64,000 nt of DNA from Shigella phage phi25-307: sequence record MG589383. One strand, written 5' to 3'. Positions within the stretch are counted from its first letter, which is position 1, and every line of letters starts with the position of its first letter. Shown in pieces: positions 22,521 through 62,748 of this stretch. The position numbers and the translations under genes were made by a program. Below the pieces are notes generated by a model. The model did not search any database, had not been told where the DNA came from, and saw nothing but the letters and a program-made list of their open reading frames with translations.

Positions 22521-22559
22521 GATAGGACTACTATAACATAGCCCTATCTTGTTATAAAC
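22521..22559 (-). promoter_or_regulatory. PeSL-like early promoter cassette (family B)
   Basis: Minus strand GTTTATAACAAGATAGGGCTATGTTATAGTAGTCCTATC; shares ATAGTAGTCCTA(T/C) with cassettes at 42443, 42964 and 62711. Confidence 0.55.
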
Positions 22560-22951
22560 TACTTTTTAAAAGTTTTTTGCAAAAGTTTGATGATTTCGTC
22601 GACGTTGGTTTCATCTACGATACAATGTATTTTTGTTACACCTAAAGCTATACCTTTGTTGGTAGATTGAGGCTTTACTAAATCTACCTCAGTAAAGTAT
22701 TTGAACTCGTCAGGATAAATCTCAAAATAAGTTTCAATTTCACCAGCGGCAGAACATACAGTACCGTCTTCCATAGTTACACTTACTACGTTTGGCGTAT
22801 CGTCATCATAATCAGGTTCCATTCCGTTTACAACAAAACTAGGCCCGTGGAGTTCAATCAATTTTAACATCTTAGCGTTATTGTGTGGCGCTTCTTGAAC
22901 AAAGTCGTCTTTAAACAAAGGGTTAATGATATAAGATTTTCCGATTTCCAT
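22559..22951 (-). CDS. Hypothetical protein, 130 aa
   Basis: ORF downstream of the promoter at 22981-23009. Confidence 0.55.
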   Translation of the reverse strand: MEIGKSYIINPLFKDDFVQEAPHNNAKMLKLIELHGPSFVVNGMEPDYDDDTPNVVSVTMEDGTVCSAAGEIETYFEIYPDEFKYFTEVDLVKPQSTNKGIALGVTKIHCIVDETNVDEIIKLLQKTFKK

Positions 22952-22980
22952 TTTGATTTCCTCATGTTGTTGATAGAACT

Positions 22981-23009
22981 ATAATATCACATCTAGGGAA
23001 GAAGTAAAC
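22981..23009 (-). promoter_or_regulatory. PeSL-like early promoter cassette (family A)
   Basis: Minus strand GTTTACTTCTTCCCTAGATGTGATATTATAGTTCTATC; near-identical to the cassette at 52392-52420. Confidence 0.55.
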
Positions 23010-23032
23010 AACTTTTTTGGCAATTTACAGAT

Positions 23033-23058
23033 ACTCAAAAGGGAGACCGAAGTCTCCC
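23033..23058 (-). terminator. Intrinsic terminator after gene 32
   Basis: GGGAGAC-UUCG-GUCUCCC hairpin followed by UUUUG on the minus strand. Confidence 0.7.
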
Positions 23059-23064
23059 GATTTA

Positions 23065-23964
23065 TTATAGACCAGCTAACAGGTCATCGAGGTCGCCATC
23101 GTCAGAAGACGAGGAACTCATGAAGTCATCTTCAGTTTTTGCAGAACTAAAGGCTTCCATGTCTTTATCAAAATCGTCGAGGTCAGAAGCAACTTTATCT
23201 GCAACAGAAGCTGCGGCAGCTGCTGCACCACCAAGAGCGGCAGTACCAAGAACTTGAGTAAATTTAGTATTCAATTCTTCAAACGATTTGAACTTATCTT
23301 TAGAAGTCATTTCAGAAAGGTCAACCATTTGTTCGAACAATTCTTTCTGGAAAGATTCATCATCAATGTTTGGAATCGCAGATTGATTCAGGAATTTAGA
23401 TTCGTCATAGTTACTGAAACCAGAAACCTGTTTAACTTTCAGCACAAAGTTAGCACCTTCCCATGGGCAAGTTACATCAACAGGAGTTTCACCCATTTCA
23501 GTATCGACTGCAATCATTGCATTGATTTTGTCCCAAATCTTTTTACCAAAACGGTATTTGAATACTTTACCTTCATTATCTGGAGCTTGTGGGTCTTTAA
23601 CAACCAGGATATTAGCCCAATAAGAAGTTTTACGTTTCAGTTGAGAATATTCTGTTTTGTTTGTATTGTACAGATCATTTTTACTAATGTACTGACATAC
23701 TGGACAAGAGTCATAATCGCCGTGTGTAGATGAACAGGTTTCAATATACCATTTGCCGTTTTTCTTGAACCCGTGGTTAACAAGAATTGCAAACGGAAGT
23801 GCGTCATCTGTTTTTGCCGGCAGGAAACGAATTACCGCTTGACCATTACCGGATGCATCGAGTTTCAGCTTCCATTCACCTTTATCTTCTGAAGAGAAAC
23901 CTTTGTTACCATTCAGTTTAGCCATCTGAGCTGCGAGGTCTGCGGTACTTTTACGTTTAAACAT
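23065..23964 (-). CDS. 32: Single-stranded DNA-binding protein gp32, 299 aa
   Basis: Close match to remembered T4 gp32 ([36 protein letters not shown]...), acidic C-terminal tail, size about 301 aa. Confidence 0.95.
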
Positions 23965-24035
23965 TTTATTTGCCTTTATTTAGATTAATTAAATTTTACA
24001 GTTGGTTGCTACGACACTTATACCTCGTAGCTGGT
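23965..24035 (-). promoter_or_regulatory. Gene 32 leader: AU-rich unstructured tract plus upstream hairpin (candidate autoregulatory translational operator)
   Basis: Minus strand GCTACGAGGTATAAGTGTCGTAGC hairpin (24008-24031), then AACCAACTGTAAAATTTAATTAATCTAAATAAAGG before the ATG. Confidence 0.5.
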
Positions 24036-24078: not shown

Positions 24079-24732
24079 TTAATACTTACATGATTTGATT
24101 GTTTCTATGAACAATTTCTTAGCAGCATTTCCATCGATTTGAAGTATTTTTCGATATGCCTTTAATTTGGTAGAATAATTTTGCCAGACTAAATTGTCAG
24201 TAAGTTCGTCGTGCTTATCTATAATATTCAAAAATGAGTCCAACAATAAGAAAGTCTCAAATGAGATTATATTGCTTTGTAGCAATTTGAATATGTAGCT
24301 CGACTGAACGTTGTTATTATAATCAAATATCTCTTGAAGCGCACTAACTTCAACTTTCTTACTGAAATAGTAGATGTTACGTACGTCTTCAGCAAACGTC
24401 TCCTTGGCTTGTTTGAGACGTCCAATATATTCCCTATAGAAAACTAATGCATCAGCGTCTGATATCTCACCAATCCATGCGTCTTGGTTAGCAACTAAGT
24501 TGCTTATGAATATCAAGGTGAGTTCCTTCAATTTATATTTCTCTGCTAGTTTTTCAAAGAAATATTTATCTCGGCGTTTTTGATACGCATTATCCGAAAC
24601 ACGCATGCACCAGTTATATTTGATTACGTCATACCGACCACCAAAGTGGTTTTTGCACATCAAGTATAGTTTATATACTGATTTACCGTTAATATAACGT
24701 TCTCCGTCAGGAGGCATGCGTATTTTAATCAT
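24079..24732 (-). CDS. 59: Helicase loader gp59, 217 aa
   Basis: Same length as T4 gp59 and a close match to its remembered sequence (GERYI.GKSVYKLYLM...DVIKYNWCMRVSD.AYQKRRDKYFF). Confidence 0.9.
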   Translation of the reverse strand: MIKIRMPPDGERYINGKSVYKLYLMCKNHFGGRYDVIKYNWCMRVSDNAYQKRRDKYFFEKLAEKYKLKELTLIFISNLVANQDAWIGEISDADALVFYREYIGRLKQAKETFAEDVRNIYYFSKKVEVSALQEIFDYNNNVQSSYIFKLLQSNIISFETFLLLDSFLNIIDKHDELTDNLVWQNYSTKLKAYRKILQIDGNAAKKLFIETIKSCKY

Positions 24733-25408
24733 AGTTCCATCCAGGCCATTTTGAAGATTTAAGTCTATACGTAACTAGAGATGCAGAAATATTAAAAACA
24801 TCCGAAACTTCTGTGCATGACGAGTATTTTATACCATCAATAATTATAGGTTTTTGTTTTTTAATAGTTCTTTCTTTAGAATGCGGCTTTGAATTTGCTA
24901 TTCTAAGAGCTTCTTTGGTTGAATCAGGCATCGGCTTATTCGTTTTTCGCCCTTTTCGGACTTTACTCAAAGCTAATTTATGAGCTTCAGATAGTTTCTT
25001 ACCCTTATTAGGGGATGGTATTTTTCTTTCTAATCTGGTTTTAGATACTTTAGCCTTAGTCTCTTCAGATCTAGGTTTACCTAATTTAGAAAGTGAAATA
25101 GCCCTTTTAGCTTCATCACTTTGTTTTTTACCAGGGCCACCTTTACCACCGGGAACTAAGTTATAAGTATCAGTTCGCAAAACAAAATCTTCATTAACCA
25201 ATTCTGCTTCTTTTTTATAGGCGTCCTTGTCATTATCATATTCATAAAGAATTTCGGTATAAAAATTTTTTAGTCCATATTTAGCTTTGGCCGCTAATAT
25301 AGCGCGGCCTGATCCAATATACCAATCTTTCTCTTTATGTTTTTTGTGTACGCCTATATAAATTTTACCATTTATTTTATTGGTAGTTTTATACACAACG
25401 TATTTCAT
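24725..25408 (-). CDS. GIY-YIG homing endonuclease (Seg-like), 227 aa
   Basis: N-terminal GIY-YIG module VVYKTTNKINGKIYIGV..., basic C-terminal half with repeated K/R-rich DNA-binding-like segments; free-standing between gene 59 and gene 33. Confidence 0.8.
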   Translation of the reverse strand: MKYVVYKTTNKINGKIYIGVHKKHKEKDWYIGSGRAILAAKAKYGLKNFYTEILYEYDNDKDAYKKEAELVNEDFVLRTDTYNLVPGGKGGPGKKQSDEAKRAISLSKLGKPRSEETKAKVSKTRLERKIPSPNKGKKLSEAHKLALSKVRKGRKTNKPMPDSTKEALRIANSKPHSKERTIKKQKPIIIDGIKYSSCTEVSDVFNISASLVTYRLKSSKWPGWNYD

Positions 25409-26915: not shown

Positions 26916-26947
26916 ATGAACCTCTTGTTCAGTTAGTCAACTTGACT

Positions 26948-26977
26948 ATAGTAACATACTCATTTGAAAGCGTAAAC
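26948..26977 (-). promoter_or_regulatory. Early promoter for rnh (GTTTAC, 18 nt, TACTAT)
   Basis: Minus strand GTTTACGCTTTCAAATGAGTATGTTACTATAG. Confidence 0.45.
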
Positions 26978-26980
26978 TGG

Positions 26981-27018: not shown

Positions 27019-30000
27019 ATGGCCGACATCAAACGTAAGTTCAGAGCCGAAGACGGTCTGGACGCCGGTGGCGACAAGATTGTTAACGTAGCATTAGCCG
27101 ACCGTACAGTAGGTACTGATGGCGTAAACGTTGACTTCCTGGTACAAGAAAACACCGTTCAAGTATATGATTCTACGCGTGGATATAACAAAGGATTTGT
27201 TGTTCTTTATGACAACCGTTTATATCAAGCAATAAATGATATCGTGTCTCCTTCCGGGGCATTTAACCTTTTACAATGGCGCACAGTTCGTACCGATGCA
27301 CAATGGATAACTGTCGCTTCTGGGACTTATCAACTTTCTTCAGGTGAATCGATTTCGGTTAACACTGCTGCCGGCAATGATATGGTTTTCACATTGCCAA
27401 GTACGCCGGTTGATGGTGATACTGTTGTTTTGGCTGATATCGGTGGAAGAACCGGGACAGTTAAAGTACAGATTAACGCGTCTGTGCAGAGTATTTTAAA
27501 CTTTAGAGGTGAACAAGTTCGTTCAGTTTTAATGACGCGACCACGTTCACAACTAGTGTTTGTGTTTAGTAATCGTTTGTGGCAGATGTATATCATTGAT
27601 TACGGTAAAGAATCAATCACTGTTACACCAGCGGCACCATATCAAGCACAAGCAAATGATTTTATCGTTCGTCGTTTTACTAGTGCAGCACCAATCAACA
27701 TTACACTTCCACGTAATGCTAACAATGGTGATATAATCAGCCTAGTCGATTTAGATAAATTAAACCCACTGTATCATACAATTGTTAAAACATTTGATGA
27801 TACAACGTCTATTGGTGAAGTCGGGACTCATATTGCCGAAGGCAGAAATGACTCTGACGCGTTTTTTGTTTTTGATGCTGCAAATAGTTTATGGCGTATA
27901 TGGGAAGGCGACCAGAAATCGCGTCTTCGTATTATCCGTGCGGATTCAAATATTCGTCCAAATGAAGAAGTTCTTATTTTTGGCACAAATAACGCTGCAA
28001 CCGGAACTATTAATCTTACGCTGCCTACCGGAATTTTGAGTGGTGACACTGTTAAAATTTCAATGAACTACATGCGTAAAGGCCAAACAGTAAAAATTAA
28101 AGCTGCCGAAGGTGATACAATTGCTTCTTCTGTTGCGTTGCTTCAGTTCCCTAAACGTTCTGAGTATCCACCTGATGCTCAATGGGTCTCTGTTACTGAA
28201 CTAGAATTCAATGGCACTACTTCATATGTTCCTGTATTAGAATTATCGTATATCGAAGACACCGTTGCTGGTACACGTTATTGGGTTGTGCAACAAAACG
28301 TCCCAACTGTAGAACGTGTTGATGCTGGAACTGATGCTACACGAGCTCGTTTAGGTGTTATTGCTCTTGCTACTCAAGCGCAAGCAAACGTTGATTTTGA
28401 AAATTCTCCGGCTAAAGAAGTTGCTATTACTCCTGAAACGTTGGCAAATCGTACAGCAACTGAAGCTCGACGTGGTATCGCTAAAATTGCTACAACAGCA
28501 CAAGTTAACCAGAATTCCACAGCATCATTTGTGGACGATACTATTGTTACGCCTAAAAAACTAAATGAGCGTACAGCAACTGAAACTCGTCGTGGTCTTG
28601 CTGAAATTGCTACTCAGGCTGAAACAGATGCTGGTCTTGATGACACAACGATTATTACACCTAAGAAATTGCAGGCACGTCAGGGTTCTGAAACACTATC
28701 TGGTATAGTTAAATATGTATCAACTACTTCTGCTACTCCTGCTGAAACTCGTGGGGCTGCAGGCACTAATGTTTATAATAAAACCGTAAATAATTTAACT
28801 ATTTCTCCTAAAGCCCTTGACCAATATAAAGCAACTTACGCCCAACAAGGTGCAGTAATTTTAGCTATTGATAGTGAAGTAATTGCTGGACAATCTCAGT
28901 CTGGATACTCTCATGCTGTAGTAACTCCTGAAACACTACATAAGAAAACTTCTACTGATGGACGTATTGGTTTAATTGAAATTGCTACGCAAGCAGAAAC
29001 TAATGCTGGGACTGATTATACACGTGCAGTAACGCCTAAGACGTTAAATGATAGGAGAGCGACGGAAGGATTATCCGGCATAGCCGAAATTGCTACGCAA
29101 GTTGAATTTGATACTGGAACTGATGATACTCGTATCTCGACTCCACTGAAAATTAAAACTCATTTTGATTCTTCTGACCGTACCAGTGTTAATTCTGATT
29201 CCGGACTTATTGAAGAAGGAACCTTGTGGAACCATTATACTCTTGATATTTCTAAAGCAAATGAAACACAACGTGGTACACTTCGCGTAGCGACCCAGGC
29301 AGAATCTAATGCAGGAACTTTAGATGATGTTCTTATTACTCCTAAAAAGCTTTTAGGGACTAAGTCCACTGAAACGTCTGAAGGTGTAATCAAGGTTGCA
29401 ACCCAGTCTGAAACTGTGACTGGAACGTCAGCGAACACTGCTGTATCTCCTAAGAATTTAAAATGGATTGTGCAGAGTGAACCAACATGGGCTGCTACTA
29501 CAGCAATTCGCGGATTCGTTAAAACTTCATCCGGTTCTATTACATTCGTTGGTAATGATACAGTCGGTTCTACACAAAACTTAGAGCTATACGAGAAAAA
29601 TAGCTATGCAGTATCACCGTATGAATTAAACCGTGTATTGGCAAATTACTTGCCATTAAAAGCAAAAGCTGCTGACGCAAATTTATTAGATGGCCTAGAT
29701 TCATCTCAGTTCATTCGTAGGGACATTGCACAGACGGTTAATGGTTCACTAACCTTAACCCAACAAACGAATCTGAGTGCCCCTCTTGTATCATCTAGTA
29801 CGGCTACGTTTGGTGGTTCGGTATCTGCTAATAGTACATTAACTATTTCTAATACAGGTGCTTCAACTCGCTTAATATTTGAAAAAGGTCCACAAACTGG
29901 AAACAACCCTGCTCAGGCGATGAATATCCGTGTATGGGGTAACCAATTCGCCGGCGGTTCTGATACATCTCGTGCTACGATATTTGAAGTTGGTGATGAA

Positions 30001-30894
30001 ACATCTAACCACTTTTATTCACAACGGGATAACCTTGGTAATATTACTTTCAGCATCAACGGTACAGTTCGGCCGATTAATGTTAATGCATCCGGAACAT
30101 TGAATGCTAATGGTGCGGCAACATTTGGACGTTCGGTGACAGCACAGGGTGAATTTATAACCTATAGTGCAAACGCATTCAGAGCAATTAGTGGTAATTA
30201 CGGATTCTTTATTCGTAATGATGCTGCTAATACCTATTTTATGCTTACTGCATCAGGTGATCAGACTGGCGGATTTAATGGATTACGTCCTTTAGCTATT
30301 AATAATGCATCCGGCCAAGTAACGATTGGTGAAGGCTTAATCATTGCCAAAGGTGCTACTATAAATTCAGGTGGTTTAACTGTTAACTCGAGAATTCGTT
30401 CTCATGGTTCTAAAACTGCTGATTTATACACTCGTGCTCCTACTGCTGATACAGTCGGATTCTGGTCAATCGATATTAACGATTCAGCCACTTATAACCA
30501 GTTCCCGGGTTATTTTAAAATGGTTGAAAAAACTAATGAAGTGACTGGACTTCCATACTTAGAACGTGGCGAAGAAGTTAAATCTCCTGGTACACTGACT
30601 CAGTTTGGTAACACACTTGATTCGCTTTACCAAGATTGGATTACTTATCCAACAACTCCAGAAGCACGTACAACCCGTTGGACACGTACATGGCAGAAAA
30701 CTAAAAATTCTTGGTCGAGTTTTGTTCAGGTATTTGATGGTGGAAACCCTCCTCAACCTTCTGATATTGGTGCTTTACCTTCTGATAATGCAACAATCGG
30801 AAACTTGACAATAAGAGATTTCTTAAGGATTGGTAACGTCCGCATTATTCCAGACCCTGTGAATAAATCTGTTAAATTCGAGTGGATTGAATAA
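27019..30894 (+). CDS. 34: Long tail fibre proximal subunit gp34, 1291 aa
   Basis: First gene of the plus-strand late operon; size close to T4 gp34 (about 1289 aa); repeated ...TPKKL/TPETL... motifs in the shaft region. Confidence 0.9.
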   Translation: MADIKRKFRAEDGLDAGGDKIVNVALADRTVGTDGVNVDFLVQENTVQVYDSTRGYNKGFVVLYDNRLYQAINDIVSPSGAFNLLQWRTVRTDAQWITVASGTYQLSSGESISVNTAAGNDMVFTLPSTPVDGDTVVLADIGGRTGTVKVQINASVQSILNFRGEQVRSVLMTRPRSQLVFVFSNRLWQMYIIDYGKESITVTPAAPYQAQANDFIVRRFTSAAPINITLPRNANNGDIISLVDLDKLNPLYHTIVKTFDDTTSIGEVGTHIAEGRNDSDAFFVFDAANSLWRIWEGDQKSRLRIIRADSNIRPNEEVLIFGTNNAATGTINLTLPTGILSGDTVKISMNYMRKGQTVKIKAAEGDTIASSVALLQFPKRSEYPPDAQWVSVTELEFNGTTSYVPVLELSYIEDTVAGTRYWVVQQNVPTVERVDAGTDATRARLGVIALATQAQANVDFENSPAKEVAITPETLANRTATEARRGIAKIATTAQVNQNSTASFVDDTIVTPKKLNERTATETRRGLAEIATQAETDAGLDDTTIITPKKLQARQGSETLSGIVKYVSTTSATPAETRGAAGTNVYNKTVNNLTISPKALDQYKATYAQQGAVILAIDSEVIAGQSQSGYSHAVVTPETLHKKTSTDGRIGLIEIATQAETNAGTDYTRAVTPKTLNDRRATEGLSGIAEIATQVEFDTGTDDTRISTPLKIKTHFDSSDRTSVNSDSGLIEEGTLWNHYTLDISKANETQRGTLRVATQAESNAGTLDDVLITPKKLLGTKSTETSEGVIKVATQSETVTGTSANTAVSPKNLKWIVQSEPTWAATTAIRGFVKTSSGSITFVGNDTVGSTQNLELYEKNSYAVSPYELNRVLANYLPLKAKAADANLLDGLDSSQFIRRDIAQTVNGSLTLTQQTNLSAPLVSSSTATFGGSVSANSTLTISNTGASTRLIFEKGPQTGNNPAQAMNIRVWGNQFAGGSDTSRATIFEVGDETSNHFYSQRDNLGNITFSINGTVRPINVNASGTLNANGAATFGRSVTAQGEFITYSANAFRAISGNYGFFIRNDAANTYFMLTASGDQTGGFNGLRPLAINNASGQVTIGEGLIIAKGATINSGGLTVNSRIRSHGSKTADLYTRAPTADTVGFWSIDINDSATYNQFPGYFKMVEKTNEVTGLPYLERGEEVKSPGTLTQFGNTLDSLYQDWITYPTTPEARTTRWTRTWQKTKNSWSSFVQVFDGGNPPQPSDIGALPSDNATIGNLTIRDFLRIGNVRIIPDPVNKSVKFEWIE

Positions 30895-30902
30895 GAGGTA
30901 TT

Positions 30903-32030
30903 ATGGAAAAATTTATGGCTAAGTTTGGACAAGGATACGTCCAAACGCCATTTTTATCGGAAAGCAATTCAGTACGATTTAAATTAAGCATAGCGGGCTC
31001 TTGCCCGCTATCAACATCTCCTGCTTATATTAAGTTCCAGGATAATCCACTTGGGTCCCAGGTTTTTTCTGTTGGATTAAACGTTCGTGTAATAAATCCT
31101 ACAACAGGTGCAGTAGTTGAATCTAAGTCATATAATTTCTCTACTGAAAACGACACAACGTCAAGTGCATTTGTTACTTTCATGGACACATATGCTTCAA
31201 ATTTTATATTTGCTCTTGTTACTAACGCTAAAACAAACTTTCCGCCTGAAGTTCTTACATGGTTTAATAAAGCCGGAAGTTCTGCTATTCCATTAGCTCA
31301 ACAAGTTTTAAATATAGTGGACATTTCTTATTCGGCATTTTATATTTCTGGTAAGAATGCTATAGCACTAGAACATATTAAGTATAGTAATAAGAAAACT
31401 TCAACCGACTATAGTACACCACTTGATGTTGTGTATGACACGATCGACGATATTGGTGCTACCGGCTTCCCTAGTCGTACGTATGAATCGACAGACACAT
31501 TTTTATCTGCCGTTGGAGGTACTAATAATGAAATTAAAAGGATGCCTACAACATCCCTTATTACACCTCTCGCTGGGTATAAATTGAAGCCTGGAGATTT
31601 CCTTTATATGAAATTCCAACTAATGGCTGATGCCGATTTGTTAGCACAAGGGACGACACGACTTTCTATTCGTTTCTTTAAATCTCCTTCTACTTCACCT
31701 ATTTCATTTAAGGATACAAACTTTGATGGGGCTGCAGGTGAATGGAAGATATATGAAGACTACATAGAAATTCCTGCTGGTGCTGACGGGTTCACGATTT
31801 ATTGTTATCGTACAGCTCCAGTCGGGCAAGGTGGATTAAGAAACGTTATATTCACTGAAGTATCATGTAATGGAAGCGTTTCAAAACCTGCTGAGTTTGG
31901 TGTAAATGGTATTCGTGTAAATTATGTTTCAGAATCTTTAAGTGCCCCAGACATAATGACATTACCTACTCAATCTTCAACTGATACTGGTAAGGTATTT
32001 GGTCAAGAATTTAAAGAAGCATCAGAATAA
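30903..32030 (+). CDS. 35: Long tail fibre hinge protein gp35, 375 aa
   Basis: Position and size match T4 gp35 (about 372 aa); SD GAGG before the ATG. Confidence 0.8.
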   Translation: MEKFMAKFGQGYVQTPFLSESNSVRFKLSIAGSCPLSTSPAYIKFQDNPLGSQVFSVGLNVRVINPTTGAVVESKSYNFSTENDTTSSAFVTFMDTYASNFIFALVTNAKTNFPPEVLTWFNKAGSSAIPLAQQVLNIVDISYSAFYISGKNAIALEHIKYSNKKTSTDYSTPLDVVYDTIDDIGATGFPSRTYESTDTFLSAVGGTNNEIKRMPTTSLITPLAGYKLKPGDFLYMKFQLMADADLLAQGTTRLSIRFFKSPSTSPISFKDTNFDGAAGEWKIYEDYIEIPAGADGFTIYCYRTAPVGQGGLRNVIFTEVSCNGSVSKPAEFGVNGIRVNYVSESLSAPDIMTLPTQSSTDTGKVFGQEFKEASE

Positions 32031-32035
32031 ATTTA

Positions 32036-32060
32036 GGGAGACTTCAGTCTCCCATTTTTG
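32036..32060 (+). terminator. Intrinsic terminator after gene 35
   Basis: GGGAGAC-TTCA-GTCTCCC hairpin followed by ATTTTTG. Confidence 0.7.
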
Positions 32061-32068
32061 TATAAATA
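32061..32068 (+). promoter_or_regulatory. Late promoter TATAAATA for genes 36-37-38-t
   Basis: Exact TATAAATA directly after the terminator, 25 nt upstream of the gene 36 ATG. Confidence 0.6.
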
Positions 32069-32092
32069 TGGTATACATATAAGGAGACAACT

Positions 32093-32758
32093 ATGGCCGA
32101 TTTAAAAGCTGGTAGTACAACTGGCGGCGCCGTTATATGGCATCAAGGTAATTTCCCTTTAATGCCAGCAGGTGATGACGTCCTGTATAAAACGTTTAAA
32201 CTCTATTCAGAATATAATAAACCACAAGCGGCTGATAACGATTTCGTTTCTAAAGCTAATGGTGGTACGTATGCCGCTCGAGTAACATTTAATAATGGTG
32301 TGCAAGTACCTTATGCCGTAAATAACACAAATCAAAGTGGTATTTATCCTGGCAATGGCGATGCTGCTACTTTTGATACAGCAAATATTGATATTGTTTC
32401 ATGGTATGGCATTGGTTTTAAATCATCACAAGGATCTGCAGGTAGAACTGTTGTTGTTAACACTCGTACTGGTGATATCAGCACTAAAGGTGGTATTTAT
32501 GCAACTGGTCCTGTCCGTTCTAACGCTACTGCTCCGGTTGCAGCAAATGATCTCACAAGAAAAGATTACGTTGATGGACGAATAAATATTGTTACAGATA
32601 ACGCAAATTCCCGTGTATTGCGTTCTGGCGATACCATGGCTGGTACTTTAACAGCACCAAACTTTTTCTCACAGAATCCGGCGTCTGAGGCTAATCATGT
32701 TCCTCGTTTCGACCAGATTGTAATTAAAGATTCTGTTCAAGATTTCGGCTATTATTAA
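32093..32758 (+). CDS. 36: Long tail fibre distal connector gp36, 221 aa
   Basis: Same length as T4 gp36; position between 35 and 37. Confidence 0.8.
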
Positions 32759-32766
32759 GAGGACTT

Positions 32767-52363: not shown

Positions 52364-52391
52364 AATATTCTCCTCTTGTTTTGATAGGTCT

Positions 52392-52420: not shown

Positions 52421-52424
52421 AACT

Positions 52425-52844
52425 TTATGCAAAAGATGCTGGACAATATTTTTTGATTTGGAACTCAGGAACTACCATGAACTGTCCAGCGAAAACGATG
52501 TTATAAAGCTTAACACCATCTTCTACCCAACGGTCGCTAATAAATCCGGCGATTTGCTTAGTTTTCCACGGCGTTCCATCGGTTCCCGCAGCAATAGTGA
52601 ATTCATGGTCTTTTACAACTAAAACAGACCTGCACAGTTTCCATTTGAACGCTTTTTCTTCTGGCTCAATGAATTGGCTTGAGACGTAGCCAATGTTGCC
52701 ATCGGCGTCACGAACTTTAACTTGATGTGGACTAAAGAGTCCACAACTTACAGAAAGAACTTCAACCAACTTCCCGGCAACTTTAGAGCGAGAAGCAACA
52801 GATACATATACGTAATCACCTGTAGAGAGATTTACAATATTCAT
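52425..52844 (-). CDS. Hypothetical protein, 139 aa; paralog of 52854..53309
   Basis: Shares VSVASRSKVAGKLVEV and FISDRWVEDGVKLYNIVFAGQF with its upstream neighbour. Confidence 0.6.
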   Translation of the reverse strand: MNIVNLSTGDYVYVSVASRSKVAGKLVEVLSVSCGLFSPHQVKVRDADGNIGYVSSQFIEPEEKAFKWKLCRSVLVVKDHEFTIAAGTDGTPWKTKQIAGFISDRWVEDGVKLYNIVFAGQFMVVPEFQIKKYCPASFA

Positions 52845-52853
52845 AATAATTCC

Positions 52854-53309
52854 TTAAGCTTTACGAGGAGACACATAGCGAGTGATTTCAGATTCTTTAA
52901 CAACTCGGAAGTCACCTAAGAATACGATATTGTATAACTTTTCACCATCTTCAACCCATTGGTCACTAATGAAGCCACACATAGTATCAGTTTTGCTTGG
53001 ATAACCGTATTCGTCGATGTAATCAAATTCTTTATCGGTTATAAATTCAACGCCTTTGCAAAGGGCCCATTTGAACTGTACATTAGGTTCAGTAGAAGCA
53101 AAATGAGCACTCACATGAGTTTCCAGGAATTTAGGACTTACGTAAGCGTACTGAGTATCCTGACGTCCAAAACTAGGAATGATTCGAACTTTAACTTCTT
53201 TAATACGTCCCATGCCATTTGTGCGAAGTCCGACAACTTCAACCAGACGACCTGCGGCTTTAGACCGGGATGCAGTTGATACACGCTTAATTTCACCAAT
53301 AGTAATCAT
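52854..53309 (-). CDS. Hypothetical protein, 151 aa; paralog of 52425..52844
   Basis: Start trimmed to ATG 53309 (the track start lies inside the -10 element); shares STASRSKAAGRLVEV and FISDQWVEDGEKLYNIVFLGDF with its neighbour. Confidence 0.6.
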   Translation of the reverse strand: MITIGEIKRVSTASRSKAAGRLVEVVGLRTNGMGRIKEVKVRIIPSFGRQDTQYAYVSPKFLETHVSAHFASTEPNVQFKWALCKGVEFITDKEFDYIDEYGYPSKTDTMCGFISDQWVEDGEKLYNIVFLGDFRVVKESEITRYVSPRKA

Positions 53310-53339
53310 AATTTTTCTCTCTTTGTTTAAGTTGAATTC

Positions 53340-53369
53340 ATTATACTCCATCCATCCTTGGATGTAAAC
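53340..53369 (-). promoter_or_regulatory. Early promoter (GTTTAC, 18 nt, TATAAT)
   Basis: Minus strand GTTTACATCCAAGGATGGATGGAGTATAAT. Confidence 0.5.
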
Positions 53370-53374
53370 TGGTT

Positions 53375-56432: not shown

Positions 56433-56585
56433 AATATTTTCCTCTGTCTTACGGACGTTAGGTCATTTAGCTGATATGTCCTATAATATCATGCCCTCAG
56501 GTAGTGTACACTCTTTTTTCGTAAAATGCTTTAATTTTTTATGTGTTATAATGGTTCTGAGTTCCATCCGGTTATTCCAATCCAG

Positions 56586-57194: not shown

Positions 57195-57222
57195 TTAGGT
57201 TTCTCCTCTGGTTGATAAAAGT

Positions 57223-57251
57223 ATAGTATCATCGTCGGTAGAGTTTGTACA
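57223..57251 (-). promoter_or_regulatory. Early promoter for modA (TGTACA, 17 nt, TACTAT)
   Basis: Minus strand GTGTACAAACTCTACCGACGATGATACTATAC, followed by GAGGAG and the ATG. Confidence 0.5.
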
Positions 57252-57380
57252 CTAAAAATTCAACATTTTTAAATGAATGATTTTGTTAGGTATTCGCGTT
57301 CTTGAAGTTCAGATTGACATGTCATGATAGACCTCCATTTAAAGATAAGCCTATCATAACACGAGAGGAGGGAATGTAAA

Positions 57381-57545
57381 CTACTTTTTAAGCTTTCCTA
57401 CTAAAGGTCCATCAGGTCCAGGTTGTTCTAACATGAATAAGGATGCTTTAAAAAGCAATGCCAACCCTTTCACCATTCGATACCATGTCTCAAAGTCTTT
57501 TTCCTTGATTTCTAGTAAGAATTTCTCTTTAAATTTCTCTTTCAT
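57381..57545 (-). CDS. Hypothetical protein, 54 aa (below ORF-track cut-off)
   Basis: Hand translation MKEKFKEKFLLEIKEKDFETWYRMVKGLALLFKASLFMLEQPGPDGPLVGKLKK; ATG overlaps the upstream stop (ATGA). Confidence 0.4.
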   Translation of the reverse strand: MKEKFKEKFLLEIKEKDFETWYRMVKGLALLFKASLFMLEQPGPDGPLVGKLKK

Positions 57546-58187: not shown

Positions 58188-58393
58188 TATAATTTCCTCG
58201 ATGGTTCACCCATATAAAGTTTTACAATACGTTCGCCTTCATCTTCGATGAGCTTCTCTTCATGTTTCTGGAATTCTTTAGCCATATTCTCTTCAAGAAC
58301 ATCCAGCCAATCTTCTGGACCGACACCATCGTCCCAGCTTTTAAACCATTTAACTATCTTGTTCATTCGCAGCTCCCTGAGCTTGAACCACAA
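58187..58393 (-). CDS. Hypothetical protein, 68 aa
   Basis: ORF whose ATG overlaps the downstream gene start region. Confidence 0.5.
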   Translation of the reverse strand: MWFKLRELRMNKIVKWFKSWDDGVGPEDWLDVLEENMAKEFQKHEEKLIEDEGERIVKLYMGEPSRKL

Positions 58394-58563
58394 TCAGAAT
58401 AACTTGACCCAGAATCACCAGGCCAAGACGATACGTATGAATGATTATAATCGGAAGAGCTTGAAGCATTAACCTGTTTTGTTTTTGGACGAACAACTTC
58501 TTCCATCATTCCGTCACCGATATATTCCCAACTTTTTTCGTGTGTATCAGGAATAGGCATCAT
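58363..58563 (-). CDS. Hypothetical Ser-rich protein, 66 aa
   Basis: Track ORF 58363..58686 trimmed to the first ATG after the upstream stop, preceded by AAGG. Confidence 0.4.
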   Translation of the reverse strand: MMPIPDTHEKSWEYIGDGMMEEVVRPKTKQVNASSSSDYNHSYVSSWPGDSGSSYSDCGSSSGSCE

Positions 58564-58804: not shown

Positions 58805-58832
58805 ATTGTTCTCCTCTTGAGTAAGTAAGAAT

Positions 58833-58862
58833 ATCTTAACACAGTTTTTAGCGGTTGTAAAC
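58833..58862 (-). promoter_or_regulatory. Early promoter (TTTACA, 17 nt, TAAGAT)
   Basis: Minus strand GTTTACAACCGCTAAAAACTGTGTTAAGAT. Confidence 0.45.
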
Positions 58863-58871
58863 TGTAGAAAC

Positions 58872-58899
58872 AAAAAAAAAGGAATCCCGAAGGATTCCT
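58872..58899 (-). terminator. Intrinsic terminator after soc
   Basis: GGAAUCC-UUCG-GGAUUCC hairpin followed by a 9-nt U-run on the minus strand. Confidence 0.75.
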
Positions 58900-58907
58900 T
58901 AAATTAT

Positions 58908-59183: not shown

Positions 59184-59189
59184 ACTTAA

Positions 59190-59708
59190 TCAGTAACCAT
59201 TATCCTGGCGTTCAAAGTTGTGTTGGTTTTTCAGGTAATACAGTTTGAAGATTTCTTCAGCAGAAAGTCCTAGACCTTGGAACATATTTAGAACGAAATG
59301 TAGGATATCAATCATCTCGAATTTAATTTCAAGCTGGTCTTCAGGAGACAGTTCATCGATACGACGATTTCGATATTCAGCATGTTGTGCCTTCCACGGC
59401 TTCCATACAGAGCTAGCGGCTTTTTCACCATTGCTCATACCACCAAGTGAAGTCAGCAGTTCACGGAATTCATCATCAATATAATCTTTCTGATTACGCA
59501 GCCAATCAACAACATCACCAGCAGTAGCCAATTCATCAGGATGTTTGTTATGTTCAGGCTTGTCATTTGCCAGACGAACCTGTAAAGATTTCTGCATATC
59601 AAGCATTACCTGCAGAGGGTCTTTATCTTCGTGAATCAGGGCATTAAAATAAGCTTCTTCTGCTTTATCAACACCAGAAATAAGTTGTGAACATTCGTTA
59701 AAGTGCGC
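59190..59708 (-). CDS. 56: dCTP pyrophosphatase (dCTPase/dUTPase) gp56, 172 aa
   Basis: Start trimmed to MAHFNEC; close match to remembered T4 gp56 (DPLQVMLDMQ, FRELLTSLG, SPEDQLEIKFE..D..HFVLNMF.GLG, EEIFKLYYLKN); position between soc and 61. Confidence 0.75.
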   Translation of the reverse strand, partial: AHFNECSQLISGVDKAEEAYFNALIHEDKDPLQVMLDMQKSLQVRLANDKPEHNKHPDELATAGDVVDWLRNQKDYIDDEFRELLTSLGGMSNGEKAASSVWKPWKAQHAEYRNRRIDELSPEDQLEIKFEMIDILHFVLNMFQGLGLSAEEIFKLYYLKNQHNFERQDNGY

Positions 59709-59801
59709 CATTATTTTTCCTTTCAATTCAGTATAAGAGAGTTTAATTCTAACATTAATTTTATAAAGCGTAATAAATAATAAGGTAACTAAGGAGATAT
59801 T

Positions 59802-61018: not shown

Positions 61019-61057
61019 AGTATTCTCCAGAGGCCTTAAATTAATAAGGCCATCATA

Positions 61058-61552
61058 TCACAACTTATTAATATTTACTTTAATTCGCTTTCTTTTCTTG
61101 GAAGGAATTTGTTCTGGACCTTTATTTACGACTGCACCTGTAGTTGTTCCTGATGCAATAGCTTGAGGACTACCGCCTGAATCACCAGCAACCATATCCT
61201 CAAATAAAGGGAGTTCTTTAAATATTTCTTTCTGTTGTTCTTCTGTAATGTTATAGCGTGAAGCTACAGCACTCCAGGCAGACATCATTGAGGCCATTCC
61301 ATTAAGACCTGGAACAGTGCTCATCATTCGCTTCATTGAACGAACTGAAGCATGAAAAGGTGTATACGCAGCTTTCTCTTCGGGAGTAGAAGGACGTTTA
61401 AGAACACTTCCACGTTCATCGATGATTTTGGCTTCGTATGCTTTCCATTCGGTAAAAGGTTTTTGCATTAGTCGAATAAACTTATATGCATAAACAGAAT
61501 CTATTGCAGTGTTAATAATACCCATAGGTACCTCCTGAGTATATTTAATCAA
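61058..61552 (-). CDS. Hypothetical protein, 164 aa (61.1 position)
   Basis: ORF upstream of gene 61. Confidence 0.55.
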   Translation of the reverse strand: MIKYTQEVPMGIINTAIDSVYAYKFIRLMQKPFTEWKAYEAKIIDERGSVLKRPSTPEEKAAYTPFHASVRSMKRMMSTVPGLNGMASMMSAWSAVASRYNITEEQQKEIFKELPLFEDMVAGDSGGSPQAIASGTTTGAVVNKGPEQIPSKKRKRIKVNINKL

Positions 61553-61742
61553 TTACAAAGATTGCTTTGTCACCATTTACATCTGTGACTTCATATGTAG
61601 TGCCTTCATACTGTGGAATATTCCAAATTACACCATCATTAGCTTTTACGCTAATATGGCATTGGTGTTTTGAAACAACTTCATAATCTTCAAAACTTGT
61701 AAAAACACTAATTTTAGAACCAGTGCAAATTGCAGTAGTCAT
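61545..61742 (-). CDS. Hypothetical protein, 65 aa
   Basis: ORF in the 61-sp interval. Confidence 0.5.
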   Translation of the reverse strand: MTTAICTGSKISVFTSFEDYEVVSKHQCHISVKANDGVIWNIPQYEGTTYEVTDVNGDKAIFVID

Positions 61743-61743
61743 T

Positions 61744-62403
61744 TTAACCTCGATTCATAAATGCATTAAATATTTGGTCATCAACAGAAATTTCTAATTC
61801 GACTTCAATTGCTTCAGCCTTTTCTTCAGGTGGTAATTCGTATCCACACACTACAATTTTTTCATCAATATCAAAATATACAGAAGCAATATGATTAATG
61901 TTATTTTCGGTTAAGTCTAAATCAACATCAACATCTTTTTGACCTACACTTAAAGGATAACTAATACGGGTTATTTTATTATCTTTAACAAAGAGTCCAC
62001 CGACATACTCTGTACTACGTTTGAAGTTTACACGTTTCCGAAATGAAAGATATGATGCATCTTTACCATGAGCTCGGCTCATAGGACATAATGAATAGCT
62101 AGAATAAGAGATGTCAAATCCTACACCTTCAATATGAGCCAACGTGTCATGATTAAACCAATTATAATCATATGCCAAATCCATTATATTGTAATATGTG
62201 AAAGGCACCGGATTAACATCATACGTTGTACCTTTAAAATCTGCCCAGGCAACGATTTCGTTATCTTTAACAATTACAAAAATTACACCAATATGGTATC
62301 CGTTATTATTTTCATTCGGCGTTATATTATAACATTGTGCATTAGGAAATTTACCATATTTAAACGGCGCGTTTTTGTGCATGTAATAAATCATATTATT
62401 CAC
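61744..62403 (-). CDS. Hypothetical protein, 219 aa
   Basis: ORF in the 61-sp interval. Confidence 0.55.
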   Translation of the reverse strand: MNNMIYYMHKNAPFKYGKFPNAQCYNITPNENNNGYHIGVIFVIVKDNEIVAWADFKGTTYDVNPVPFTYYNIMDLAYDYNWFNHDTLAHIEGVGFDISYSSYSLCPMSRAHGKDASYLSFRKRVNFKRSTEYVGGLFVKDNKITRISYPLSVGQKDVDVDLDLTENNINHIASVYFDIDEKIVVCGYELPPEEKAEAIEVELEISVDDQIFNAFMNRG

Positions 62404-62689
62404 CTGTGATTTCGGTTACGATATCTTTGTTATCGAAATTAGGGTCACAATACAAAACATAATTGTACTGCATGATACCGCCAGACTTAAGTTGTTCAAC
62501 AACTTTATTAACCATATTAGGACGATCTCGTTTAGTGATGTTCATGATATCAGAGAAGATTTGTTGTTCAACATCTTCTTGATTTGCAGTCATTGACCAC
62601 TCACAGAGGTCTTTATCATAACCTGCCGTAACTGGAGCTGGTGCGCATGATACTGCAAGTAAGATTGCTGCCAATGATAACTTTTTCAT
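62396..62689 (-). CDS. sp: Spackle (Sp) periplasmic superinfection-exclusion protein, 97 aa
   Basis: Signal peptide MKKLSLAAILLAVSCAPAPVTA, then AGYDKDLCEWSMTA and MQYNYVLYCD matching remembered T4 Sp; same length (97 aa). Confidence 0.85.
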   Translation of the reverse strand: MKKLSLAAILLAVSCAPAPVTAGYDKDLCEWSMTANQEDVEQQIFSDIMNITKRDRPNMVNKVVEQLKSGGIMQYNYVLYCDPNFDNKDIVTEITGE

Positions 62690-62710
62690 TTTAACTCCTT
62701 AGTTGATTTG

Positions 62711-62748
62711 ATAGGACTACTATACTATAGTCCATCTATAATGTAAAC
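62711..62748 (-). promoter_or_regulatory. PeSL-like early promoter cassette (family B)
   Basis: Minus strand GTTTACATTATAGATGGACTATAGTATAGTAGTCCTATC. Confidence 0.55.

Follow-up and report, generated by a model that had tools for sequence, protein, structure and literature searches.

Composite elements joining a promoter to a stem-loop (PeSLs) have been described in T4-type phages. In RB49 and phi1 the stem-loops lie most commonly between the -35 and -10 elements or overlapping the -10, and their stems include G-T pairs; RB49 PeSLs have near-perfect TTGACA/TATAAT promoters, and GGGG...CCCC stems, and both terminator activity and mini-circles have been demonstrated for them (Arbiol et al. 2010, PMC2839356). 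The same authors regard the T-even elements as analogues rather than homologues of those in RB49. The PeSLs of T4 and PST have the promoter consensus TTTACW-N17-TAYWAT, an A/T-rich upstream region, and a 3' Shine-Dalgarno sequence with ATG (Comeau, Arbiol & Krisch 2014, PMC4122927), and the accounts of T-even elements on which we draw (PMC4122927; Repoila et al. 1994, as cited in PMC2839356) describe weak, A/U-rich AGNA...TCNT stems, clustered in plastic early regions beside indels between close relatives. T4 and RB69 early promoters, including 57 predicted in RB69 with C-rich -3 to -1 positions (Nolan et al. 2006, PMC1524935), have instead been treated as polymerase recognition elements only, and the Hinton 2010 review (PMC2988021) does not mention embedded hairpins. 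We found no paper cataloguing PeSLs in RB69-like Mosigvirus.

The DNA analyzed here, a stretch of about 64 kb from Shigella phage phi25-307 (hereafter the window), comes from such an RB69-like (Mosigvirus) T4-type coliphage, a different clade from T4 and PST, and shares 96-98% identity with phages F2 and AV111. The minus strand is the sense strand of its early genes, and every promoter-like site lies on that strand, from 661 to 63488 rather than only within 22521-62748, as an earlier note had it. A position-weight scan of the window, with a matrix made from the sites themselves and a top score of 15.9 in 10 shuffled sequences, placed all 24 strong sites on the minus strand; the plus strand yielded none, and its tail-fibre module has no promoter-like sites. 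With one to three weak sites (42217, 13989, and 39321, the last within motA), the earlier count of more than 25 is about right, if slightly generous. The exact pattern TTTACA-N17-TAYWRT occurs 12 times, only on the minus strand, against 0.28 expected, which bears out the promoter type originally proposed. The cassettes are intergenic, in early, plastic regions, and they precede accessory ORFs no more often than T4-conserved early genes (motA, motB, imm, sp, cef, srd, modA, alc, and rnh). The features are as follows, with folding energies in kcal/mol.

615-664, minus strand: cassette core (-38 to +12); -35 TTTACA at 661, spacer 17, -10 TACTAT; weak hairpin GGATG/CATCC around the -10 (-5.5); the alt stop codon abuts the -35.
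6446-6495, minus strand: cassette; -35 at 6493, spacer 18, TATAAT; hairpin not significant (-5.1).
7532-7581, minus strand: cassette; -35 TTTACT at 7577, spacer 16, TATTAT; 13-bp hairpin, core GGTACAGGT/ACCTGTACC, enclosing the -10 (-18.4, z = -4.3).
7978-8027, minus strand: cassette; -35 at 8023, spacer 16, TACTAT; weak structure (-6.0); similar to the 7577 cassette (identity 0.71).
11535-11584, minus strand: cassette; -35 at 11581, TACTAT; 13-bp hairpin, three pairs G:U, enclosing the -10 (-16.9 sense, -8.1 antisense).
13661-13710, minus strand: cassette; -35 at 13707, TATAAT; hairpin AGGAGC/GCTCCT with the entire -10 in its loop (-12.2).
15067-15116, minus strand: cassette 5' of alc; -35 at 15113; spacer palindrome ACACCA-AGGA-TGGTGT (-8.8).
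16249-16298, minus strand: cassette; -35 at 16295, TACAAT; spacer palindrome CCACAA-GGA-TTGTGG (-7.6).
22512-22561, minus strand: family B cassette; -35 TTTATA at 22558, TATAGT; 11-bp hairpin ATAGGGCTAT/ATAGTCCTAT, one pair G:U (-16.0, z = -5.3; antisense -8.9).
22963-23012, minus strand: family A cassette; -35 TTTACT at 23008, spacer 16, TATTAT; no embedded hairpin (-6.1).
23041-23058, minus strand: canonical intrinsic terminator, GGGAGAC-UUCG-GUCUCCC then UUUU, just 5' of the 23008 cassette.
26930-26979, minus strand: cassette 5' of rnh; -35 TTTACG at 26976; hairpin AGTCA/TGACT 3' of the -10; no same-strand gene within 350 nt 5'.
37565-37614, minus strand: cassette 5' of asiA; -35 at 37611; moderate -10 hairpin (-8.0), not significant alone.
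39865-39914, minus strand: cassette 5' of motA; -35 at 39910, spacer 16; no embedded hairpin.
39936-39953, minus strand: canonical terminator, AGGGAGC-UUCG-GCUCCCU then UUUUG, 5' of the 39910 cassette.
42171-42220, minus strand: cassette 5' of ndd; weak -35 TGTACA at 42217, TATAAT; 7-8-bp hairpin TGAGAGC/GCUCUCA enclosing the -10 (-14.0).
42432-42481, minus strand: family B cassette; -35 at 42478, TATAGT; hairpin GTAGGATTAT/ATAGTAGTCCTAC (-14.1 sense, -7.9 antisense).
42944-42993, minus strand: family B cassette; -35 at 42990, TATAGT; hairpin TAGGACTAT/ATAGTCCTA (-13.2).
52374-52423, minus strand: family A cassette 5' of cef; -35 TTTACT at 52419; 5' hairpin arm lost (-3.4).
53322-53371, minus strand: cassette 5' of a motB paralogue; -35 at 53368, TATAAT; palindrome within the spacer.
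56465-56514, minus strand: cassette 5' of srd; -35 TGTACA at 56510, spacer 16; long leader (-7.0).
57205-57254, minus strand: cassette 5' of modA; -35 TGTACA at 57251 (-5.1).
57335-57384, minus strand: cassette; -35 at 57380, spacer 16; it would now serve only an 18-codon remnant of a modB-like gene.
58815-58864, minus strand: cassette; -35 at 58861, -10 TAAGAT; no notable embedded hairpin.
58879-58900, minus strand: canonical terminator, AAGGAAUCC-UUCG-GGAUUCCUU then U7, 5' of the 58861 cassette.
62701-62750, minus strand: family B cassette 5' of sp; -35 at 62747, TATAGT; hairpin GGACTAT/ATAGTAGTCC (-11.1).
63012-63061, minus strand: cassette 5' of imm; -35 at 63058; inverted repeat GGTTTA/TAAACC overlapping the -35 (-5.7), gone in relatives.
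63442-63491, minus strand: cassette; -35 at 63488 (-3.2).

The consensus common to these sites is the extended early-promoter consensus of T4 and RB69 (an A-rich upstream region, GTTTACA, N16-18, tgtgNTAYNAT, agNCCTATCAA, about 21 nt, GAGG, and ATG), so that their similarity goes past the generic -35/-10 hexamers. They share with the described T4 and RB69 promoters (PMC1524935; PMC2988021) the GTTTAC at -35, the A-rich UP-like element at -40 to -44, the extended -10, the C-rich -3 to -1 of RB69, and a position in front of early genes and novel ORFs. In 17 of the 24 strong sites, 28 +/- 2 nt separate the -10 from the ATG, and in 17 of 25 the stop codon of the upstream gene, contained in the A/T-rich region 5' of the promoter, falls 0-6 nt before the -35. 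Each cassette is a module of about 60-75 nt that occupies the whole intergenic gap. Every feature of published PeSLs that can be sought in sequence is present (promoter, A/T-rich upstream region, stem-loop, Shine-Dalgarno sequence with ATG at a fixed distance, intergenic position in plastic early regions, and gene-sized indels with junctions in cassettes), which supports the PeSL interpretation put forward earlier. At a probability of about 0.7, we read the cassettes as sigma-70-dependent early promoters of an RB69-like phage organized as modules, some of whose hairpins would be intercistronic RNA structures and which would also serve as recombination patches.

The main alternative is that these are early promoters and nothing more, their likeness imposed by the polymerase, their hairpins incidental or derived from local duplication, and cassette-ended indels the survivors that kept gene-plus-promoter units together. 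We consider this unlikely, although the sequence families lend it some weight. ATAGTAGTCCTAY, which defines family B, does occur in four minus-strand copies (22522, 42442, 42954, and 62711; 0.18 expected by chance; the positions first reported were off by 1, 1, 10, and 0), and CTAGATGTGWTAYTAT, of family A, was correctly placed at 22981 and 52392. To call the families near-identical or almost verbatim was nevertheless an overstatement: pairwise identity over 80 nt averages 0.58 and reaches at most 0.74 (52419 vs 23008), hardly above the maximum of 0.68-0.70 that the shared consensus yields on its own. Family B comes down to a core of about 40 nt, made of the -10 variant TATAGT, the consensus discriminator, and a complementary spacer arm, beyond which the flanks are unrelated.

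The hairpins argue the other way. In roughly one-third of the cassettes the -10 hexamer sits in the loop of a strong hairpin (7 of 24 strong sites, at -11 to -18 kcal/mol; 8 of 25 counting the weak site 42217), and the inverted repeats earlier said to bracket the -10 are therefore real. The mean minimum free energy is -8.3 kcal/mol, against -5.2 in column-permuted pseudo-sites that preserve the consensus (z = -7.7, 0/300), and the excess withstands dereplication (z = -5.6, 0/500); it falls to z = -1.8 when the strongest four sites are removed. Single-site z-scores are as low as -5.3, but about half of the cassettes fold no better than chance under this null, as promoters alone would, and some modules have a short palindrome within the spacer instead. 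Nine hairpins with differing stems share one register, are 90% paired, and carry changes on both sides at 8 of 10 pairs (0/500 shuffles), a count made on sequences that were picked for folding. Among orthologues, pairing is preserved at 22558 (G:U becomes G:C in F2, and AV111 has compatible wobble changes) and, in F2, at 37611, where G:C pair 22:36 becomes A:U; that pair is broken in 348 and ESh15. The sense strand is the more stable (mean difference -1.18 vs a null of +0.29 +/- 0.40, 0/200). Our scan of T4 independently gave the same pattern, with 8 sites in 22 kb (z = -7.5), 4 of them with hairpins of -18 to -22 kcal/mol enclosing the -10. The weak T-even type of stem occurs in phi25-307 as AGGA...TCCT and AGAC...GTCT. 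A legend in the 2014 paper places T4/PST stems "just upstream" of the promoter (PMC4122927), whereas the strong stems of phi25-307 and of our T4 scan enclose the -10, and a separate upstream terminator hairpin is found at only 3 of 25 sites in phi25-307. Since the 42478 hairpin is gone in AV111 and the 52419 hairpin has been lost in the window, the stem is dispensable at individual sites.

Under the modular reading, with promoter activity and start sites taken from homology with T4 and RB69, host RNA polymerase would initiate transcription at the A of CCTATCAA. Spacer and discriminator are complementary in about one-third of modules, which puts the -10 hexamer in the loop of a 6-13-bp hairpin. 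Its 5' arm precedes the predicted start, so that only read-through RNA from the gene before can fold into it, and it may be an intercistronic structure that closes the upstream cistron, as a 3'-end protector or as an attenuator or pause signal. With the entire gap taken up by the promoter, the hairpin would be confined to the positions left free. All 8 strong hairpins are at sites where the upstream stop is at most 13 nt from the -35 (8/17), with none at the 8 sites that have longer gaps (one-sided Fisher p ~0.02, post hoc), and none of the three cassettes preceded by UUCG terminators has an embedded hairpin.

This distribution fits a role in RNA better than one in DNA, in which a cruciform or single-strand hairpin centered on the -10 would tune opening with supercoiling, or a structure-specific nuclease such as endonuclease VII would cut and create recombination hot spots. 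The palindromes do center on the -10, and recombination junctions fall in the spacer or at the -35; yet G:U(T) stem pairs become C:A mismatches on the opposite strand (-16.9 vs -8.1 at 11581; -16.0 vs -8.9 at 22558), the overall sense bias is 0/200 against the null, and arm sequences vary between sites, so that no common protein-binding site is apparent, all of which makes the DNA role improbable. We give equally little credence to embedded hairpins being efficient terminators that isolate each module, as proposed for RB49 and phi1: they do lie directly 3' of upstream stop codons, and one RB49 stem-loop matched rrnB T1 in lowering lacZ read-through (Arbiol et al. 2010, PMC2839356), but the strong ones have A-rich tails (e.g. 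AUCAAAUCAAC) with no U-tract and A/U-rich stems unlike the RB49 GGGG/CCCC, a terminator scan picks up none of them on the sense strand while finding canonical UUCG and U-tract terminators elsewhere in the window, and T4 is known to express many of its delayed-early genes by reading through from promoters further upstream. The T4-type intercistronic UUCG intrinsic (Rho-independent) terminators, three of which precede cassettes here, likewise follow a stop codon directly and come before the next promoter, but the embedded hairpins differ from them in their larger A/U-rich loops holding the -10 and their weaker stems. Lacking a U-tract, they are not classical intrinsic terminators and are probably RNA 3'-end or attenuator structures.

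With about 25 modules in one orientation, the cassettes are also short patches of homology, and comparison with seven close relatives, including F2, AV111, 348, ESh15, EP02SG, and ECO111, suggests that they are mobile and recombine. Three gene-sized indels have both junctions in cassettes and three more have one, so that 6 of about 16 touch a cassette (homing-endonuclease indels left out). The gene shuffling proposed earlier is consistent with these junctions, but cassettes are not significantly enriched at indels over a gene-boundary null, since about 25% of gene boundaries carry a cassette, a similar share that plain promoters would also predict. The 52419 cassette is chimeric relative to AV111, 348, ESh15, EP02SG, and ECO111, which have an extra 542-bp gene between two cassettes. 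The 53368 cassette is chimeric relative to all seven relatives, in which two cassettes flank an extra 493-bp motB-like gene; the crossover lies at the -35 "TACA" with only about 4-5 nt of shared homology, mere microhomology that again suits the simpler view. Less easily accommodated by promoters alone is the 39910 (motA) cassette, which ESh15 and EP02SG have in duplicate: an extra ORFan of 235 bp sits between two copies with about 75-86 nt in common, and the duplicated stretch, of about 80 nt, takes in the first three motA codons. At 63488 the A-rich upstream region forms one junction of an indel of about 200 bp, with a DUF7279 gene here that is absent from 348, ESh15, EP02SG, and ECO111. We infer that recombination, rather than survivor bias, may have produced the indels that end in cassettes.

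In RB49 and phi1, too, crossovers within cassettes generate single-ORF indels around composite promoter and stem-loop elements with similar stem positions and G-T pairs, although phi25-307 has TTTACA at -35 and A/U-rich stems with no U-tract. Lambdoid morons and integron cassettes are comparable as single genes with their own expression signals, gained or lost in variable regions; morons, however, are not thought to move via their regulatory sequences (PMC2839356), and the phi25-307 cassettes, unlike integrons, have no integrase or attC-type site, so that exchange would use phage general recombination at repeated promoters. Because promoter/stem-loop cassettes have already been described in related phages, the finding is real but not new. 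In keeping with the published PeSL model, recombination at these patches of homology would insert or delete modules of one gene each.

By megablast, more than 100 T4-type coliphages match positions 40000-48000 over the whole query at 95-98% identity, among them F2, PHB12, AV111, and others that bear RB69 ORF names or a Mosigvirus classification. Gene names transferred from the annotation of F2, AV111, 348Ecol098PP, and ESh15 give the following layout.

Gene blocks of the window
Block 1, minus strand: alt, ligase (gene 30), cd, pseT, alc, rnlA, denA, nrdB, nrdA, td, frd, gene 32, gene 59, gene 33, dsbA, rnh
Block 2, plus strand, 27019-37275: late tail-fiber module, genes 34-38 and t
Block 3, minus strand: asiA, motA, gene 52, ndd, denB, rIIB, rIIA, gene 39, cef, motB array, dexA, dda, srd, modA, soc, gene 56, gene 61, sp, imm, dmd

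The pattern TTTACA-N17-TAYWRT occurs exactly 12 times in the window against 0.28 expected, and a two-block weight matrix trained on 21 obvious sites finds 24 strong sites, all of them minus-strand, that score 24-45 against a maximum of 15.9 in ten shuffled sequences. A reduced matrix without the spacer and discriminator recovers the identical 24 sites and adds weak ones at 42217, 13989, and 39321 (sites are numbered by the position of the -35). The last of these lies within the motA coding region (39293-39321, minus strand; TTTACT-N17-TAAGAT, reduced-matrix score 19.3) and may serve the small ORFs downstream as an internal promoter or may have arisen by chance. An earlier note had placed more than 25 promoters between 22521 and 62748; the number is close, given 24 strong sites and a few weak candidates, but the sites span a wider range, from 661 to 63488. 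They amount to about 25 copies per 54 kb of early DNA, with clusters at 6.4-8.0, 22.5-23.0, 42.2-43.0, 52.4-53.4, 56.5-58.9, and 62.7-63.5 kb, and the matrix scans find no site on the plus strand and no site in the tail-fiber block. A generic sigma-70 scan for TTGACA/TATAAT showed no enrichment over shuffles (77 vs 62, 74 vs 66, 56 vs 66); among the promoter scans, only the T4-type pattern is informative.

Similarity among the sites is not confined to the generic hexamers. Aligned on the -10, they share the -35/-10 consensus GTTTACa...TgTGnTAnTAT, a G at -36, 'ga.TgTG.' before the -10 and 'agtccTAtcaA' after it, as well as a UP-like A-rich tract (consensus aaaaAa, at about -44 to -38) inside the 3' end of the upstream ORF. 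In 17 of 25 sites, 0-6 nt separate the stop codon of the upstream ORF from the -35, often with TAG running straight into TTTACA, and in 17 of 24 the distance from the -10 to an ATG preceded by a GAGG Shine-Dalgarno is 28 ± 2 nt; promoter and leader therefore occupy the entire intergenic gap. The shared consensus is that of T4 and RB69 early promoters, and also that of the promoter-early stem-loop cassettes (PeSLs) of T4/PST. T4 and RB69 early promoters combine GTTTAC with a UP-like A tract and an extended -10, and those of RB69 are C-rich from -3 to -1 (Nolan 2006, PMC1524935), and the T4/PST PeSL promoter is TTTACW-N17-TAYWAT (Comeau 2014, PMC4122927). In hexamers and spacing, for which the yardstick is a -35 of GTTTAC(A/T), a spacer of 17 ± 1 nt, and a -10 of TAnnnT, often after TGn, in UP-like element, and in orientation 5' of early genes, the sites would thus qualify as T4-type sigma-70 early promoters, with transcription predicted to start at the A of CCTATCAA, 6-8 nt 3' of each -10; the T4 RefSeq record NC_000866 contains no promoter features to match against mapped starts. 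At 53311-53351, some GenBank annotations of relatives, like mechanical ORF calls, place gene starts at in-frame ATGs within the promoter spacer, as in cassette 53368 (ATGGATGGAG). The true start of such genes is likely the ATG about 28 nt past the -10, behind the Shine-Dalgarno sequence.

The earlier note, whose observations largely hold, was right to regard these sites as PeSLs. As defined in RB49 and phi1 (Arbiol 2010, PMC2839356), a PeSL joins an early promoter to an A/T-rich region containing the stop codon of the upstream gene, with a stem-loop and a Shine-Dalgarno plus ATG as further parts. All of these components are present here, the stem-loop at about 8-12 of 25 sites, and the cassettes fit the format of composites of about 70-100 bp that fill the intergenic gap and recur in many copies, mainly in the hyperplastic early regions. 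The RB49 and phi1 stem-loops lie mostly between the -35 and -10 or over the -10, with five positions published and G-T pairs noted, and mini-circles were found by inverse PCR (PMC2839356). Analogous T-even elements from Repoila et al. 1994 sit on T4 early promoters and have weaker A/T-rich stems (summarized in PMC2839356). PeSLs have since been extended to T4/PST and nt-1/KVP40 and proposed for probably all T4-like phages (Comeau 2014, PMC4122927), while a review of T4 prereplicative transcription is silent on promoter-embedded hairpins (PMC2988021). We found no literature naming PeSLs in RB69 or Mosigvirus. The cassettes add one more example to a known class, in a clade expected to have it.

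Within this class, two families had been described as recurring almost verbatim. The quoted motifs exist: ATAGTAGTCCTAY lies at 22522, 42442, 42954, and 62711, all on the minus strand (0.18 expected in the window), in the family B cassettes (22558, 42478, 42990, 62747), and CTAGATGTGWTAYTAT lies at 22981 and 52392, minus strand, in those of family A (23008, 52419). Compared all against all over 80 nt, cassettes have a mean pairwise identity of 0.58, and the closest pairs (52419/23008, 0.74; 62747/22558, 0.72; 42990/42478 and 8023/7577, both 0.71) stand against 0.68-0.70 reached by column-permuted pseudo-sites. MAFFT alignment shows family A members to be alike from about -45 to the ATG, and family B to share only a core of about 40 nt (GTTTA..GG..TAT..TATAGTAGTCCTA) between unrelated flanks. 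Because identity barely exceeds the column-permuted level and the B flanks are unrelated, 'near-identical' is an overstatement. The all-against-all clusters were only marginal, so we abandoned the notion of discrete families of recent copies; the families are sub-variants of one consensus, set mostly by the hairpin carried.

The proposed role of cassettes in gene shuffling can be viewed against synteny with seven relatives: F2, AV111, 348Ecol098PP (348), ESh15, TH58, EP02SG, and ECO111 5-P (ECO111).

Indels and synteny breaks between the window and its relatives (cassettes all on the minus strand)
53303-53366, both junctions in cassettes (cassette 53368): extra 493-bp motB-like gene between two cassettes in 7/7 relatives
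52361-52400, both junctions in cassettes (cassette 52419): extra 542-bp gene in 5 relatives
39835-39920, both junctions in cassettes (cassette 39910): 235-bp ORFan between two cassette copies in ESh15 and EP02SG
63488, one junction in the A-rich region of the cassette: indel of about 200 bp removing a DUF7279 gene
22558, one junction in the cassette leader: 61-nt insertion
23008, one junction in the cassette leader: end of a frd.2-like duplication
17235, 17905, 18845-18878, 20872, 24733-25405, 48446-49241, 59184-59724, no cassette: homing endonucleases or introns
Tail fibers, no cassette: mosaicism
38647-38676, 53095, 57282-57307, no cassette: in-gene deletions
8379-8530, 21424-22249, 38154-38344, 38870, 58232-58428, no cassette: gene-boundary events without promoters

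Cassette 53368 matches the upstream copy as far as GTTTACA and, from TACATCC on, the downstream one, which places the crossover at the -35. Cassette 52419 is upstream-like to mid-spacer and downstream-like from the -10, and the 5' arm of the downstream cassette's hairpin is lost. In ESh15 and EP02SG, the stretch common to both copies is about 75-86 nt long and takes in ATGTCTAAA of motA. These chimeric and duplicated cassettes are stronger evidence than junction counts. Although three events have both junctions in cassettes and three have one, about 6 of 16 non-homing-endonuclease events is not clearly above the roughly one quarter (~25%) of gene boundaries that carry a cassette, and the association is therefore not statistically decisive; junction enrichment is significant against a uniform-position null only and is lost under a gene-boundary null. 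Of the other indels, most are homing endonucleases or introns. The association of cassettes with indel junctions is suggestive.

Several variable loci deserve mention. The 57282-57307 indel was rejected as cassette-mediated and is an internal deletion of a modB-like gene via the microhomology ACAAA. About 503 bp of this ADP-ribosyltransferase gene are deleted (about 57270-57325, minus strand), and promoter 57380 now serves only an 18-codon remnant; the gene is intact in AV111, 348, TH58, and ECO111, F2 has the same deletion, and ESh15 has another partial state. The motB (PF17613) tandem array at 52425-53312 (minus strand) has two paralogs here and up to four in AV111, 348, and ESh15, with gains and losses bounded by promoters between copies. 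Between gene 59 and gene 33 sits a GIY-YIG/NUMOD3 seg-type homing endonuclease (24725-25408, minus strand; I-TevI DNA-binding domain, E = 6e-11) that 348 also has and that is missing, with clean junctions, from F2, AV111, ESh15, TH58, and EP02SG. Another NUMOD3-containing homing-endonuclease-like ORF (48435-49247, minus strand), between gene 39 and a putative glycosyl/arabinosyl-transferase gene, is shared with AV111 and absent from F2, 348, ESh15, TH58, and EP02SG. All seven relatives have 167-193 extra bp at 38647-38676 (minus strand), in an arn-region gene ('anti-restriction nuclease' in AV111), so the window carries an in-gene deletion there, flanked by a short direct repeat of 6-30 bp. 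The frd region (21424-22249, minus strand) varies among relatives, F2 having about 1.2 kb in place of 0.8 kb, and no promoter cassette lies at the junctions of this region. Its 82-aa ORF at 21998-22246 is without a Pfam match, and AV111 and ESh15 lack it.

When each site is folded as a 50-nt segment (-38 to +12), the mean MFE is -8.3 kcal/mol, compared with -5.2 ± 0.4 for column-permuted pseudo-sites that keep the consensus (z = -7.7, 0/300), -5.0 for shuffles, and -6.4 for random genomic 50-mers; a dereplicated set with one site per look-alike group gives z = -5.6 (0/500). Removing the four strongest sites leaves the remainder marginal (z = -1.8), and the structure signal thus arises from about one third of the sites. 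Seven of the 24 (7577, 11581, 13707, 22558, 42478, 42990, 62747) have the spacer paired with the discriminator around a loop that holds the -10, at -11 to -18 kcal/mol, and weak site 42217 is an eighth strong embedded hairpin. Stem-loops of any position are present in about 8-12 of 25 sites: enclosing the -10 in 8, inside the spacer in 3-4, over the -35 in 1, 3' of the -10 in 1-2, and as a separate upstream hairpin in 3. Palindromes of 4-6 bp lie within the spacer at 15113, 16295, and 53368, and others overlap the -35 at 63058 or lie downstream of the -10 at 26976. Inverted repeats bracketing the -10, noted earlier for many of the sites, are real in about a third; about half have no stem beyond chance.

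Nine hairpins, seven from the window and two from T4, align ungapped in one register with 90% paired, against 34-54% in slid registers, and with 8 of 10 pairs varying on both sides (0/500 shuffles); because they were chosen for folding, the alignment shows the same helix with different arms and is not an unbiased test. Covariation among orthologs was sampled in 4-7 GenBank relatives, a search of IMG/VR with the Ndd protein having given three loci only. In four relatives, a G:U pair of 22558 is G:C in F2 while AV111 retains pairing via wobble changes, and one G:C pair of 37611 is A:U in F2, but neither 348 nor ESh15 keeps the pairing; AV111 has lost the 42478 hairpin. Rfam covariance models had no matches in the whole window at gathering thresholds.

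The same structures occur in T4. Scanned with the reduced matrix, bases 1-22000 of NC_000866 contain eight sites, all on the minus strand (set z = -7.5, 0/300), and at four of these the -10 is enclosed by a hairpin of -18 to -22 kcal/mol, in each case more stable in sense than in antisense.

Early-promoter-like hairpin sites in T4 (NC_000866), genes assigned by position
20565-20614, minus strand: site 20611, upstream of dmd
8170-8220, minus strand: site 8217, upstream of dexA
7168-7217, minus strand: site 7214, upstream of motB
6580-6632, minus strand: site 6629, upstream of cef

Site 7214 (AACTCTTGGGACCAGAGTATAATGGTCCCG) has the frame of window sites 13707 and 42217 with different arms. Repoila et al. 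reportedly described, in 1994, a T4 early promoter of about 70 bp with an overlapping palindrome.

In regard to function, we rejected a common repressor operator, as arm sequences vary from site to site. Termination has a precedent, since one RB49/phi1 stem-loop terminated transcription in a lacZ assay (PMC2839356). For the hairpins described here, the sequence argues against classical intrinsic terminators: none of the strong embedded hairpins is followed by a U-tract, their tails being A-rich, and a sense-strand terminator scan flagged none of them, while the same scan detected canonical UUCG terminators with U-tracts elsewhere. The latter are a recurrent class distinct from the promoter-embedded hairpins, and lie directly upstream of cassettes 23008, 39910, and 58861.

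C(UUCG)G-tetraloop terminators with U-tracts, early (minus) strand
281-303
16715-16728
23041-23058
39936-39953
43807-43822
48419-48436
51102-51117
58879-58900

As between RNA and DNA, folding is stronger on the sense strand. Sense minus antisense folding averages -1.18 kcal/mol, compared with +0.29 ± 0.40 in column-permuted controls (0/200), because the stems contain G:U pairs; 11581 folds at -16.9 vs -8.1 and 22558 at -16.0 vs -8.9 kcal/mol. Since the 5' arm lies upstream of the predicted start, the hairpin would exist solely in read-through RNA from the upstream gene. A strong embedded hairpin is found in 8 of 17 sites with the upstream stop at most 13 nt from the -35 and in none of 8 with a longer gap (one-sided Fisher p ~0.02, post hoc), and in none of the three sites with a separate upstream terminator. 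We read the embedded hairpin as an end-of-cistron RNA structure. A compact genome would force such a hairpin into the next promoter, where its arms could occupy only the unconstrained positions, spacer and discriminator, and this may be why the -10 sits in the loop.

A further step, to which we give roughly one chance in five, is that the -10-enclosing hairpin is a conserved sense-strand RNA element of T4 and RB69-like phages, an intercistronic insulator that shields the 3' end of the upstream early mRNA and is neither a terminator nor a by-product. Such an insulator would protect the 3' end, for example, after cleavage at the GGAG/Shine-Dalgarno region of the next gene or after Rho-dependent release, and would be embedded in the next promoter for want of other space. 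What is new here is only partly so: strong stems without terminator tails, sense-biased and tracking the closeness of the upstream gene, and likewise in T4.

Our findings yield a coordinate-level catalog of about 25 early promoter cassettes in an RB69-like phage. Their practical value is modest, although for annotation it is useful that start codons annotated in relatives often fall inside promoters. The PeSL idea gains independent support from a third T4-type clade, with chimeric and duplicated cassettes in the motB array and upstream of motA as concrete cases, and with the caution that the often-quoted link between cassettes and indels is weak under a gene-boundary null. Because hairpins that enclose the -10, are sense-biased, and lack a U-tract occur only beside abutting genes, in T4 as well, their function is directly testable in the best-studied phage system, where RNA 3'-end protection or attenuation, termination, and DNA structure are the functions to tell apart. 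If the insulator proposal is true, these hairpins would constitute an unrecognized layer of post-transcriptional control in T-even early gene expression.
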